A stretch of DNA of 64,000 nt. It comes from a virus. Its lineage: Duplodnaviria > Caudoviricetes. Under the pieces are notes generated by a model, which saw only the letters and a program-made list of their open reading frames with translations, was not told the origin of the DNA and did not search any database. The translations under genes and the position numbers were made by a program. This document shows positions 6,406 to 43,763 of this stretch, in pieces. The stretch is from IMG/VR virus record IMGVR_UViG_2731957753_000001, positions 12,324 through 76,323 of that record. One strand, given 5' to 3'. How positions within the stretch are numbered: the first letter of the stretch is position 1; each line of letters begins with the position of its first letter.

Positions 6406-7761
6406 ATGCCGAAGCAAGAACTCGCCCTCGGAGAGTTGGGCGACATCAGCTACACCGCCATACGCAAGGGCGGCAAGATCACTGGATACCGGGCGCGCGC
6501 ACGATGGCGCCGCCCCACCGACGGCGAGATCCTGCCGAAGGAACGATCCGGGAAAAGCAAGGGCGCCGCGAAGACCGCCTTGAAGAAGTACGTCACCGAG
6601 TTGAACGAGTACGCGGCCGGCGGCAGCGAGACCATCACACGGGATACGAAGATCCCGGTGTTGGCGGACCTGTGGCTGGCTGAGTGCGAGTTGGATGAGG
6701 GCATGGATGATGCGTCGGTGGAGCGGTATCGGGAGGAGATCGAGCCGACGGAGATGCGGTACCGGAAGGACGGCAGCCCGGACCGCAGGGTGAAGCCGGA
6801 TGCGTTGAAGATCAAGACGGCGTTCGCGAACATATCGGTGTGGGAGTTGAACACGCCCCGCTATGACCGGCATGAGAAGGCGATCCTGGCGACGGGTGCG
6901 AAGCAGAAGGCGCGGTTTCATCGGATCATCGTGTCCGGGATGATGGATCTCGCGGTCCGGCATGGGGCCATCAAGCCGGGGGATCATCCGGTGCGGAGTT
7001 TGAAGGCGATTCGCCGGGAGCGGAAGAATCCGCGGGCTCTGGAGCAAGGGCAACTGTCGGAGTTGCGGGCGCAGTTGCGTGCGTGGTTGCGGGGTGAGGC
7101 GATCGAGGGCACGGAGGCGTATACGCATGGTCCTGCGCGTGACCCGGATGTGGTTCGGATCGGTGATCTGATGTTGGCGACGGGTGCCCGTCCTGGGGAG
7201 GTTCTAGGCTTCCGGAAGTGTGATATTCATCTCCCTGCCAGTCCGGGTGACCCGTGGCTGGTGGATGTGTTCGGGACGGTGAAGCCGGACAGGAACGGGA
7301 AGCTGAACCGGGTTCCGCATACGAAGACCGGTGAGGACGGTAAGCGGACGGTGATCTTGCCGAAGTTCGGGGTGGCGGTGCTCGCGGAGATGGGCGCTTA
7401 TGAGTGGGAGCCGGGTGATGAGTCGCCGGTGTTTCCGTCTCGGGCTGGCACTTGGCGGTGGCCTGCGAATTTTCGGCGGTCGTGGCGTGAGGCGCGGGGT
7501 TCGAAGTTCGCGTGGGTGGAGCCGAAGACGTTCCGGAAGACTGTGGCGACTGTCATAGCTGACGAGTACGGGCATGAGCGGGCTGGGGCTCAGTTGGGGC
7601 ACACTCCGGGCTCGAAGGTGACCCAACTCAGTTACATCCAGCGCGCCTTGCTTGTGGCGGACTCCACTCCGGCCTTGGATAGGTTCTCGGAGATACCGGC
7701 CGTGACGGAGGAGGTGGAGGTTCTGGATATGGGCGAGTCCGACGGGGAAACTGTGGGATAA
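6406..7761 (+). CDS. int: Tyrosine integrase
   Basis: ATGARPGE (Arg), PKTFRKT, QLGH and catalytic Tyr (LSYI); adjacent attP. Confidence 0.95.
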   Translation: MPKQELALGELGDISYTAIRKGGKITGYRARARWRRPTDGEILPKERSGKSKGAAKTALKKYVTELNEYAAGGSETITRDTKIPVLADLWLAECELDEGMDDASVERYREEIEPTEMRYRKDGSPDRRVKPDALKIKTAFANISVWELNTPRYDRHEKAILATGAKQKARFHRIIVSGMMDLAVRHGAIKPGDHPVRSLKAIRRERKNPRALEQGQLSELRAQLRAWLRGEAIEGTEAYTHGPARDPDVVRIGDLMLATGARPGEVLGFRKCDIHLPASPGDPWLVDVFGTVKPDRNGKLNRVPHTKTGEDGKRTVILPKFGVAVLAEMGAYEWEPGDESPVFPSRAGTWRWPANFRRSWREARGSKFAWVEPKTFRKTVATVIADEYGHERAGAQLGHTPGSKVTQLSYIQRALLVADSTPALDRFSEIPAVTEEVEVLDMGESDGETVG

Positions 7762-41749: not shown

Positions 41750-42178
41750 TTAAGCCGCGGGACGCAACGTCACACGGATAGCGCCGTCATCGGCTGTTTC
41801 GCGCACGATTTCCTGGAACCGTCGCCCTTCGATCCACCAGTCAGCGCCCTCGATGGTCGGCGCGAACCCTGGGGTCGCATAGTCCTCCGGGGTCGGCCAA
41901 ACCAGCAGCGGCATCGACTTGTCCTCCAGCCACGACAACTCGACACCCCGGATACGGTTCTCTGTTACCACCGAGCGCCAGTTCTCCAGACGACCCGACC
42001 AGCGCTCACCCGACTCATCGTCATCGACAGTCAGGAACACAGGCTGGTCAGGGTCAGCGCTGCGGATAGCATGTGCGAGAGGATGCCCGAGATCCGGCAA
42101 CCGCGAATAGTCCTCACCGGGCTCGAACGTGTACAGCAGAGCGAAGTTCCGGTCCCACACGCGAGCGAACTTGGACAT
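41750..42178 (-). CDS. Stand-alone paralog of the tail-hub N-terminal domain
   Basis: RVWDRNFAL / HPLAHAI / VFLTVDDDESGERWSGRL align with RLWDGDFRL / DPLAKWI / VYITVDKDGARWSGRL of 15027..16748. Confidence 0.75.
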   Translation of the reverse strand: MSKFARVWDRNFALLYTFEPGEDYSRLPDLGHPLAHAIRSADPDQPVFLTVDDDESGERWSGRLENWRSVVTENRIRGVELSWLEDKSMPLLVWPTPEDYATPGFAPTIEGADWWIEGRRFQEIVRETADDGAIRVTLRPAA

Positions 42179-42372
42179 TATTCGAGTTCTCCTGGCAGAT
42201 AGTGTCGGCAGCCGCAATCCGGGCCACCCTTCGGGCAGGCACGCCACTCAACCTCGGGCGGATCAACGTACTCGGATTCCCAACGGGCAGTCTCACGCTT
42301 CTCACGCTGACGGGCAGTACCGCGCTCAGGTGGATGGCAGCAGCCCATCCAACAGTTCCGGTGCACCATCAT
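42178..42372 (-). CDS. Small Cys-rich protein
   Basis: 'CWMGCC...CPKGGPDCGCRH'; TAATG coupling to the next gene. Confidence 0.55.
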   Translation of the reverse strand: MMVHRNCWMGCCHPPERGTARQREKRETARWESEYVDPPEVEWRACPKGGPDCGCRHYLPGELE

Positions 42373-42396
42373 CGCCACGGGACGCCTCCGGAAAGT

Positions 42397-42439
42397 GAAA
42401 AGCCCGCCGAAGTGAGCACCGTTGGGAGGCTTGGCGGGC
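42397..42439 (-). terminator. Terminator-like hairpin after the tRNA
   Basis: GCCCGCC...GGCGGGC followed by TTTT on the minus strand. Confidence 0.65.
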
Positions 42440-42446
42440 ATCGTTG

Positions 42447-42521
42447 TGGCAGTGGTCGGATTTGAACCGACGTCCTCTTGGGTATGAACCAAGCGCGCTC
42501 ACCGAACTGCGCCACACTGCT
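42447..42521 (-). tRNA. tRNA with CAT anticodon (Met/fMet/Ile2)
   Basis: Full cloverleaf: D-stem GCGC/GCGC, anticodon arm CTTGG-TTCATAC-CCAAG, T-arm GTCGG-TTCAAAT-CCGAC; A1:C72 mismatch; CCA not encoded. Confidence 0.92.
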
Positions 42522-43080
42522 ATGAGGCAGGCACCCTTGCGGGCGGTCTGCCATGTAGTCGCCCACCGAAGCGGACTGGTGGGCTCTACCCCACTGCTCG
42601 GCATCCCAGAACCTTGTGGGCTCCGTCTGCCGCAATTACTAAACCCGCCGCCAAAGACAACGGGTGGTATTCCAATGTCCGCAGGGGGAGGCCGAAGCCC
42701 GCAAGTCCCGCGGCCCAGTATGCGGCCCCGACGCAAGGGGTGATCAAGTCCGCAATACGCCGGGGCGGTTCAGAAAAGACCCCAAGCTACGAGAGCATGG
42801 GGTGGGCGACCCGATACAACGCCTCAGGTAAGGCGTTCCCCGCTCGCTTCAACCGCAACTGCTGGTCTTTACACGACAAGGCCCACCGGCACGGGGAAGA
42901 TCATGCCCCCGGCGACTTGCATCAGCGGCCCACCGGGGGTTTCGCGAAGGTTGGGTGCCCGATTCCATCGGGAGACCGACCCCACTTCGGCACCCCAGAG
43001 GATGCCGCAACCGATGCCCACCAAGCCGGAACGCCGACTGGATTTGGGCCCAAGTATCCGAAGACAGGGTCTCACAAGTA
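42522..43080 (-). ncRNA. Candidate large structured ncRNA co-transcribed with the tRNA
   Basis: Three C(UUCG)G loops, two GCAA loops, many stems, no credible ORF; promoter TTGTCA-N18-CAAAAT at 43116-43087. Confidence 0.6.
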
Positions 43081-43193
43081 GGTAGGATTTTGCAAGTTTT
43101 GTTGCCGATTTGACAAGTATCTACCGCTTTTACCGCCCGCCAAAACGGCCCCCACCTGCAAAACAATCGCAAAATGTGATTTGTCCCACAATT

Positions 43194-43763
43194 CTAGGCT
43201 GCTGCCCGTTCGGGCGCCTCACTCGCTCGCAGGTCCTCGATGTGGTCGACCAAGCCGGGCGTCAACCGGAACCACTCCCTGGTATGCCGCGCCGACCGGA
43301 ACTGTCCGTGGCGCTTCTTCTCCAGCTTCCGCGCGCCGAACTCGATCGCCGGCACTTCATCGTGCACGAGATTCGAAAGGCGGACGCCCAGGTTGCCCGT
43401 GTATCCGATTTTCAGATACGGGCCGAACCGCAGGTAGTAGACGACGCTCTTCCCAAACCCGTGAAACAGATGCGATTGCGTAAGCCGCCGCCGGTACTCG
43501 CGTTCATCACGCTCGAACGAACAGGACACGCACCGCGTGGTCTCACCGAGACTGTCCACCCACAACGTGTCGCGATCACCGCATCCAGGACAACTCCACC
43601 GCAACCGCTCCGCGTCCGCGGGTACTACCTCGCGGACCTTCTCCTCACGCTCGAACTCGAACGCCCGCAAAGTCTCGGTAGCGACGTTGAAGTCCCGGAT
43701 AGCTTTCTGCCAGTGCCAGGTACACAAGCTGACGGACGAGGCGAACGCGTCCGCTGCTGGCAC
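43194..43763 (-). CDS. GIY-YIG/T5orf172-like protein with a Zn-ribbon (start may lie further upstream)
   Basis: 'VYYLRFGPYLKIGYT...RL...EKKRH.QF...EWF'; CPGC...CVSC. Confidence 0.75.
   Translation of the reverse strand: MPAADAFASSVSLCTWHWQKAIRDFNVATETLRAFEFEREEKVREVVPADAERLRWSCPGCGDRDTLWVDSLGETTRCVSCSFERDEREYRRRLTQSHLFHGFGKSVVYYLRFGPYLKIGYTGNLGVRLSNLVHDEVPAIEFGARKLEKKRHGQFRSARHTREWFRLTPGLVDHIEDLRASEAPERAAA

Follow-up and report, generated by a model that had tools for sequence, protein, structure and literature searches.

The question raised by this locus is what a hairpin-rich stretch of 595 nt (42522-43116), free of credible open reading frames (ORFs), encodes directly in front of a prophage tRNA gene. 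Giant structured non-coding RNAs (ncRNAs) such as GOLLD and ROOL are found in prophages close to tRNA genes, and the sequence-only reading that preceded this analysis had seen here a single RNA of that kind. The results presented below lead to another answer. Very probably, the stretch belongs to a prophage 'RNA cassette', of which it forms the part other than the tRNA; it is a mosaic of modules, one of which (module A) is an orphan homologue of an Abi-linked small RNA.

The locus and its setting

The window, i.e. the whole stretch of DNA analysed (64,000 nt; G000:C25:12324-76323), is part of a 7.44-Mb actinobacterial genome, and the region is a prophage. Downwards on the minus strand, a DUF7341/7340 gene, a MazG-like gene, and a T5orf172/MUG113 (GIY-YIG-like) gene (43194-43763) precede the flagged gap, which is followed by tRNA-Met(CAT), an ORF for a Cys-rich protein of 66 aa, a cutinase-like gene, and the gene of the large terminase. 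Since tRNA-Met(CAT) occupies 42446-42521 on the minus strand (ARAGORN; 66.1 bits with the Rfam tRNA model), the stretch, which stops at 42522, ends exactly at the tRNA 5' end, as had been claimed. This is the end at which RNase P cleaves. The 66-aa ORF (42178-42378, minus strand; GTG start with GGAGG 5 nt upstream of it) gave no family match, and the DNA of its region (42377-42182) is kept in the related prophages L012, L014, L018, L022, and L028 (blastn). It is a downstream neighbour and lies outside the RNA.

The promoter proposed for the stretch (TTGTCA-N18-CAAAAT) is present on the minus strand at 43087-43116 and agrees with the consensus at 9 of 12 positions. A consensus scan of 42100-43400 found this one site, against 0.3 expected from shuffles, and transcription of the RNA cassette may begin here. 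The cassette could also be transcribed by read-through from the T5orf172 gene upstream.

The structural motifs on which the earlier reading was built are in the sequence, with one misplaced. Three CUUCGG motifs exist on the minus strand, two of them where they had been reported (42697-42692 and 42571-42566), the third at 43063-43058 and thus off by 10 bases from the position given for it (43053-43048). Three such motifs on one strand of 595 nt compare with ~0.36 expected from the density in the window (78 per 128 kb of strand). Both GCAA loops (42920-42917 and 42540-42537) and the stems CCCCCGG/CCGGGGG, AACGCCT/AGGCGTT, and CGGCATC/GGTGCCG are likewise present. G-U pairs, UUCG and GNRA loops, and compensatory changes all suit the strand of the tRNA, in agreement with the minus-strand reading. 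The analysis supports a real structured ncRNA on the minus strand, in the orientation of the tRNA and ending at its 5' end.

Conserved pieces in the tRNA arrays of related prophages

Homologues were searched for in 400 genomes of the family and in all 267 genomes of the genus. Only two pieces of the stretch recur in related prophages, at ~42714-42669 (module A) and ~42605-42522 (module B). They reside inside tRNA arrays in the prophages L012, L013, L014, L018, L022, L023, L028, and L071, and in those of two metagenome phage contigs (L114 and L115) as well. A further conserved element of the relatives, element X (~230 nt, not a tRNA), has no Rfam match, and its nhmmer profile found nothing in the window. 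The order of these pieces is not fixed: L014 shows tRNA, X, A, B, and tRNA, and in L071 and L114 module A is followed by a tRNA or tRNA-like unit, X, other hairpins, and finally module B. The spacing from A to B ranges from 21 to ~390 nt across the loci. Because order and spacing vary among the tRNA genes of the relatives, A and B are regarded as independent units, like the tRNAs themselves.

Searches for known relatives of these pieces were negative. Rfam at permissive thresholds, applied to the stretch, seven related prophage loci, and the host small-RNA loci described below, yielded nothing for A, B, or X; when the stretch and module A were compared by blastn with 50,697 phage records, the tRNA alone matched; and ARAGORN detected no tmRNA in the relatives. 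With filters switched off, no extra copies of A or B were found in the window, where A, B, and an abiF motif are each present in single copy, and no tandem repeats of an antitoxin unit occur.

Module A and its family of small RNAs

In module A (42666-42722, minus strand), an outer stem of 7 bp is followed inwards by a C-rich internal loop and by a hairpin of 4 bp with a UUCG cap. A covariance model (R1) built from 23 non-phage (chromosomal and plasmid) copies only detects it in the window over its full length (positions 1-57) with 62.1 bits (E ~1e-19), and the window copy has a standard pair at each of the 11 pairs of the model. Among 35 distinct copies, 98% of the cells are paired. Within the phage lineage, one G-C pair has changed to U-A and metagenome copies show further double changes, with the loops invariant. 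The G-U pairs and the UUCG/GNRA caps assign the module to the strand of the tRNA. A 44-nt match had also been considered as a fragment of the 23S rRNA L1 stalk, a candidate rejected since the loci are without rRNA match.

Outside prophages, the ~45-nt core of module A is found in six other genera of the family. A genome-wide pattern scan of 185,579 species genomes revealed 23 loci of the module A family, located in Actinobacteria (Nocardia, Rhodococcus, Prescottella, Microbacterium, Herbiconiux, Nocardioides, and a Solirubrobacteraceae MAG) and in Proteobacteria (Pseudomonas, Winslowiella, and Trinickia). At these host loci, the small RNA has its own predicted promoter, with a TACACT-like -10 box in Actinobacteria and a pair of TTGACA and -10 box at two Proteobacterial loci, and a directional intrinsic terminator downstream. 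Canonical promoters and directional terminators fix its strand in both phyla; together with the UUCG/GNRA loops and G-U pairs, they led to the rejection of a functional strand co-oriented with the abi gene. The family is also encoded on 30 plasmids, where the match is unannotated; on Serratia pSMC1, the one plasmid record inspected, the RNA lies beside a 'hypothetical protein' gene adjoining parA. The small RNA belongs to no Rfam family, and blastn of a Proteobacterial copy against complete E. coli genomes gave no match.

Most host copies have a protein-coding neighbour. Among 21 distinct non-phage loci, a full-length gene for an Abi-like protein of ~224 aa is adjacent to the RNA in 15, a remnant in four, and none in two. 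Wherever the layout was examined, this gene is divergent, with its start ~20-25 nt from the 5' end of the RNA. The protein matches the PADLOC model PD-T4-5 (E 4e-12) and, weakly, Pfam Abi_2 (E 6e-4, at an R-x4-H motif); phmmer against PDB sequences returned chance matches only. Among PDB entries, its AlphaFold (AF2) model (pLDDT 89) is matched best by the complex of PbAbiF with its ncRNA (8vz6_A; Foldseek probability 0.99, TM 0.61), on which it superposes with Z 11.0 and an rmsd of 3.4 Å over 196 residues in VIA-align, the next entry reaching Z 4.2. The relation to 8VZ6 is thus visible by fold only, as judged from the predicted model. The module A family accordingly stands back-to-back with a PD-T4-5-type, AbiF-like HEPN gene on chromosomes and plasmids of Actinobacteria and Proteobacteria.

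In the window, no PD-T4-5/AbiF-like HEPN gene stands back-to-back with module A. Elsewhere in G000, the PD-T4-5 model aligns only with its N-terminal 168 of 309 positions to a 208-aa ORF on contig 16 that is devoid of the HEPN motif, and Pfam identified no Abi_2 genes in this genome. The lysogen therefore carries no intact gene of either toxin family, and because the only toxin gene of this type in G000 is truncated, module A of the window is an orphan RNA member and not part of a complete system.

The core of the window copy is 92-95% identical to host-type copies vs 81-89% to other phage copies. Directly after it follows a 10-bp hairpin with a U-rich tail (42632-42665, minus strand; -15 kcal/mol, z -1.67), which occupies the position of the intrinsic terminator of the host copies and would be its counterpart; the terminator scan did not call it. 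A host-type -10 box directly upstream of the window copy was not found. The host-like core and the hairpin at the terminator position suggest that module A may have been captured fairly recently and separately in this prophage.

An orphan abiF motif behind the tRNA

A second RNA element with a link to Abi genes is situated on the other side of the tRNA. It is an orphan abiF RNA motif (RF03085) at 42402-42438 on the minus strand, the sole match of this family in the 7.44-Mb genome, with 37.7 bits, i.e. only 0.7 bits above the gathering score of 37. Of 150 sister genomes sampled, seven have the motif 27-64 nt ahead of candidate ORFs whose N-termini are Abi_2-like, in leaders composed of a -10 box, the motif, a U-run, and a G-rich ribosome site. 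The window hairpin aligns with these Abi_2 leaders (alignment A6) and shows compensatory changes in the closing stem; the alignment runs on through the U-run, the Shine-Dalgarno sequence, and the GTG (to 42376) and then diverges into the 66-aa ORF. On the strength of this alignment, the window element appears to be a homologue of the Abi_2 leaders of the sister genomes, with the Cys-rich ORF in the place of Abi_2 downstream of it. Related prophages harbor a variant hairpin at the corresponding site after tRNA-Met. The abiF hairpin also resembles an ordinary terminator or attenuator of the tRNA unit.

Module B

Module B (42522-42637, minus strand), defined by covariation, comprises four hairpins (P1-P4) linked by conserved strands and extends to the tRNA 5' end. 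In a MAFFT alignment of nine copies, 8 of 21 predicted pairs show compensatory changes. With the model-fitted alignment, 94.7% of the cells are paired and the number of compensatory pairs rises to 9 of 21, which was reached by one of 500 shuffles; the covariation score is 0.446, whereas shuffles score 0.178 and slid controls no more than 0.114. P3 and P4 take up insertions of variable length. The module ends within a few bases of the tRNA 5' end in six of the nine aligned copies and in L115, the tRNA being tRNA-Trp in most relatives and tRNA-Met here. Since module B stops at this end, RNase P would create its 3' end.

It was detected only in phage or prophage tRNA arrays, in 9 of 267 genus genomes and on two metagenome contigs. 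A search of 150 family genomes with the module B model gave only matches at chance level (E 0.003-0.009) and no bacterial partner locus; weak matches at L080, L083, L084, and L086 are coding-like and were taken as chance. Module B is thus an RNA of four covarying hairpins whose occurrence is restricted to phage tRNA arrays. Most likely, it is a further decoy-type unit or serves the processing or stability of the tRNA next to it.

Precedents and a proposed decoy function

AbiF toxins controlled by a neighbouring RNA are documented. The Clostridioides difficile RNA RCd22 neutralises AbiF in cis and in trans (10.1101/2025.04.15.648962), and PbAbiF-AbiFr, an AbiF toxin with a neutralising neighbour ncRNA, has been solved as 8VZ6 (summarised in PMC12737573). 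PD-T4-5 is described as an Abi-type, TA-like defence that is carried on a plasmid and distantly related to AbiF/D (Vassallo et al., 2022; PMC9519451). For phage phiTE of Pectobacterium, it was shown experimentally that a toxin-less copy of ToxI allows escape from a type III system (Blower et al., 2012; PMC3475682).

The window resembles the AbiF-ncRNA systems in several respects. These combine a HEPN (Abi_2-type) toxin with a small structured RNA encoded next door; the partner protein of module A superposes on PbAbiF as described above, and the hairpin at 42402-42438 passes the threshold of RF03085. Module A itself is without sequence or Rfam relation to the abiF motif. AbiFr, RCd22, and ToxI are located upstream of their toxin genes on the same strand, whereas the module A family is divergent from its toxin gene, and whereas AbiF systems carry their toxin, both window RNAs stand without any toxin gene. 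With PD-T4-5, the module A family shares the PADLOC model matched by its host partner and the location on plasmids; the passages of PMC9519451 covered here mention no RNA partner, and the module A small RNA is unannotated in plasmid records. As has been shown experimentally for PbAbiF-AbiFr and for AbiF-RCd22, the host families of module A and of the abiF motif would be RNA antitoxins of their HEPN toxins; for the module A family, this is judged from gene neighbourhood and fold likeness.

On this basis, a decoy mechanism can be proposed. The cassette would consist of small structured modules that evolve separately and are probably co-transcribed with tRNA-Met. Host tRNA-processing enzymes would probably excise them, with RNase P cutting in front of the tRNA and, at other sites, probably RNase E or Z. 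The phage copies would be made in quantity together with the tRNA. The freed RNAs could then bind the toxin of the infected cell and hold it silent during the collapse of host transcription. Abortive infection would thereby be blocked, following the principle of the pseudo-ToxI of phiTE. Like the latter, which neutralises the abortive-infection toxin of its host, the window RNAs are phage-borne and toxin-less copies of putative RNA antitoxins. Unlike phiTE, with its tandem ToxI-like repeats against ToxN (not a HEPN protein), the window contains single copies of two unrelated families, which are known from sequence alone, are embedded in a tRNA unit, and would target AbiF-type HEPN toxins.

A comparable layout exists in phage T4. 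Its tRNA gene cluster encodes the species 1 and species 2 stable RNAs (rnaC and rnaD), which are co-transcribed and excised by the tRNA-processing machinery and lie next to a gene for a homing endonuclease of the GIY-YIG type. These RNAs have no known function, and the analogy with the window cassette is one of layout only.

The decoy cassette is considered the most economical reading because two unrelated Abi-linked RNA families lie at most 320 nt apart, neither of them with its toxin, and one of them is maintained by compensatory changes in many phages. That orphan copies of RNA antitoxins act as decoys against host Abi toxins is judged an even call. Since it has no known partner, module B lends the decoy idea no support, and the 5' two thirds of the flagged stretch stay outside its account.

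Alternative readings

Counting against decoys, recombination with host Abi loci could have left the copies behind as passive remnants. Taken further, the whole stretch would be a functionless mosaic of such debris and of decayed spacers of tRNA arrays, surviving only as tRNA leaders, spacers, or terminators that do not act in trans. In favour of this, tRNA regions of phages are hot spots of recombination, and the gene immediately upstream is of the GIY-YIG/T5orf172 type. Moreover, the 5' part is confined to this phage, the abiF-like hairpin and its U-run might do no more than terminate or attenuate, and the near identity of module A to host copies suggests a recent capture. What makes a neutral mosaic unlikely is the conservation of its parts: module A persists at nine or more loci of prophages or phages, where its loops are invariant and changes in its stems are compensated, 9 of 21 pairs of module B are compensatory, and two different Abi-linked families in such proximity without a toxin gene would be improbable if neutral.

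The RNAs could instead serve the prophage or the lysogen, either as cis-acting leaders or attenuators timing the tRNA and late genes, or as antitoxins against a resident toxin, in the sense of addiction or superinfection exclusion. The layout of the host abiF leader (promoter, hairpin, U-run, and Shine-Dalgarno sequence) attenuating a downstream gene, the cis action of RCd22, and the identical register of the window element before the 66-aa ORF are in accord with the first version, and the truncated PD-T4-5-like gene on contig 16 with the second. The 7.44-Mb genome yielded no intact HEPN partner, however, and module A has no downstream gene to regulate, the copies of the relatives being flanked only by tRNAs and RNA modules, which leaves a service to the lysogen quite unlikely.

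The reading of the stretch as one large RNA of ~560 nt, a divergent relative of GOLLD and ROOL or a new class that RNase P would release from the tRNA precursor, is very unlikely. It shares with GOLLD and ROOL the prophage setting beside tRNA genes, the absence of ORFs, and the wealth of hairpins, it has one promoter-like site at its 5' end, and the minus strand folds somewhat better than shuffled sequences, with z -1.76 over the whole stretch (plus strand, -0.38). This value is too modest to show a high degree of structure along all ~560 nt; by parts, z amounts to -1.25 for the 5' 364 nt, -2.10 for the 3' 201 nt, and -3.21 for module B alone, and covariation lifts only the 3' third beyond chance. 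A collection of homologues with covariation analysis, along the lines suggested as a check, divided the stretch in the same manner into covarying 3' modules and a 5' part of ~390 nt without homologues in the genus. The proposed likeness to GOLLD and ROOL was not borne out, as no Rfam family matches the stretch even at E up to 10: cmscan (run on the whole window with gathering scores and on 42300-43300 with E values up to 10) reported only the tRNA, the abiF motif, and one chance match. Furthermore, the whole is not conserved, and the conserved parts are modules of 57 and 116 nt, compared with an architecture of 500-800 nt in GOLLD and ROOL. A single RNA, be it a known or a new large class, is unsupported because the 5' part is without homologue in the 267 genus genomes and the conserved modules change their order and can be parted from each other. 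A and B of L071 and L114 even have element X and a tRNA or tRNA-like unit between them, and no conserved long-range helix connects the parts.

The 5' segment proper (42723-43086, minus strand) consists of GC-rich hairpins private to this prophage and contains no copy of A, B, or X. A hairpin followed by a U-run at ~42778-42803 (minus strand; z -2.6) is a possible partial terminator, and a hairpin at ~43015-43040 (minus strand) is, by comparison with L013, common to that prophage only. A recurring 32-nt match (42782-42813; seven genomes) was taken as chance because the conserved stretch surrounding it reads as coding sequence.

The claim that the stretch holds no credible ORF was upheld, with no frame in 42250-43190 showing the codon-position GC pattern of the neighbouring genes, no PHROG match for ORFs of 155 and 107 aa, no Pfam match for the former, and no tblastn match for the 155-aa and a 68-aa ORF among the 50,697 phage records. 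That the 5' part conceals a small protein gene such as this 68-aa ORF (42872-43075, minus strand; two hydrophobic stretches) is most improbable. The frame is open and mildly gene-like (GC by codon position 0.67/0.57/0.71), but it lacks a Shine-Dalgarno sequence as well as tblastn matches in phages, its GTG lies 11 nt beyond the -10-like hexamer and thus too distant for a leaderless start, and its sole homologous stretch (L013) carries a frame-breaking 1-nt indel.

Implications for actinophages and their hosts

Phage mimicry of RNA antitoxins as such is known; to this the locus adds a small RNA family that Rfam does not contain, and with module B a phage RNA whose pairs covary. A broader and rather doubtful extension of the decoy cassette would regard the tRNA arrays of actinobacterial phages as general 'RNA anti-defence islands', in which every non-tRNA module decoys a different RNA-controlled toxin. 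It would encompass module A, the abiF-like hairpin, module B, the 230-nt element X, and a hairpin with conserved loop (C) of the relatives. If this tentative view were correct, B and X would point to RNA-partnered bacterial defence systems so far unrecognised.

If the decoy function itself holds true, PD-T4-5-type 'single-gene' defences would be two-part RNA-protein systems, whose RNA part is a highly conserved, unannotated small RNA that ranges from Nocardia to Pseudomonas and is carried by many plasmids. The AbiF family is regarded as the origin of Cas13. Temperate actinophages would carry RNA antidotes against suicide RNases of this family, expressed via tRNA processing, and the long-puzzling non-tRNA RNAs of phage tRNA clusters would acquire a testable function. 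The orphan modules B and X could be used as probes for new RNA-controlled toxins. Mimicry of RNA antitoxins, known from phiTE as an escape event in the laboratory, would then also be a natural strategy with several targets.

Genes and leaders around the RNA cassette

Directly upstream of the RNA cassette, the minus strand carries a T5orf172/MUG113 (GIY-YIG-like) gene (window 43194-43763). The tRNA regions of T-even phages contain Seg-type homing endonuclease genes, and the placement of the prophage gene resembles theirs. Directly 3' of tRNA-Met, on the same strand, lies an abiF motif (RF03085) with a U-run, a ribosome site, and a GTG (window 42376-42446), the only match to this motif in the whole genome. 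In sister genomes, the leaders that precede Abi_2 genes are homologous to this element, U-run, ribosome site, and GTG included. No Abi_2 gene is present in the lysogen genome. In the window, a 66-aa Cys-rich ORF is fused to the abiF element.

The lysogen also harbors a PD-T4-5-like gene on its contig 16 (G000:C16:108016-108531; L065:1075-1701, minus strand). The match to the model is partial, being confined to its N-terminal half, the HEPN R-x4-H motif is missing, and no module A RNA adjoins the gene. It is probably a decayed copy.

RNA-like elements of related tRNA arrays

Element X, an RNA-like, non-tRNA stretch of ~230 nt, is strongly conserved across related prophage tRNA arrays (L012:1257-1488, L014:1205-1434, L018:1190-1417, L023:1086-1320, L071:1615-1845, and L114:7187-7417, the latter on a metagenome phage contig) and is absent from the window. 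Its start is flush with a tRNA 3' end, and its 3' CCACC-type strand, beside a T-arm-like hairpin, is pairable with a G-rich 5' strand. Neither Rfam nor ARAGORN (tmRNA) returned a match.

A third mobile hairpin, module C, shows a conserved loop of ~16 nt and a fully covarying 8-bp stem in two related prophage loci. It is found on opposite sides of module B, between module B and tRNA-Met in L013 and before module B in L023. Immediately 5' of the L023 tRNA array, a sub-threshold match to the DUF3800-IV RNA motif (L023:925-982; 48.5 vs 60.7 bits, E 1.7e-5) is possibly another phage-captured, gene-associated RNA motif. Between the RNA modules of L071 (1545-1620) and L114 (about 6915-6990) lie tRNA-like sequences that possess an acceptor arm and a T arm and are not called by ARAGORN; these may be decayed tRNAs retained as processing signals.

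The module A family on plasmids and in Pseudomonas

At one Pseudomonas locus (L062), two copies of the module A small RNA (1162-1218 and 2008-2064) border an AbiF-like gene, one on each side. The family is further found, unannotated, on 30 plasmids, with carriers among Xanthomonas, Pseudomonas, Serratia, Enterobacter, Burkholderia, Rhodococcus, Nocardia, Streptomyces, and others. On Serratia pSMC1 (NZ_AP013064.1, 39263-39308), the RNA is divergent from a 'hypothetical protein' gene adjoining parA/parC. This layout is compatible with a plasmid-stabilising RNA-protein toxin-antitoxin pair.
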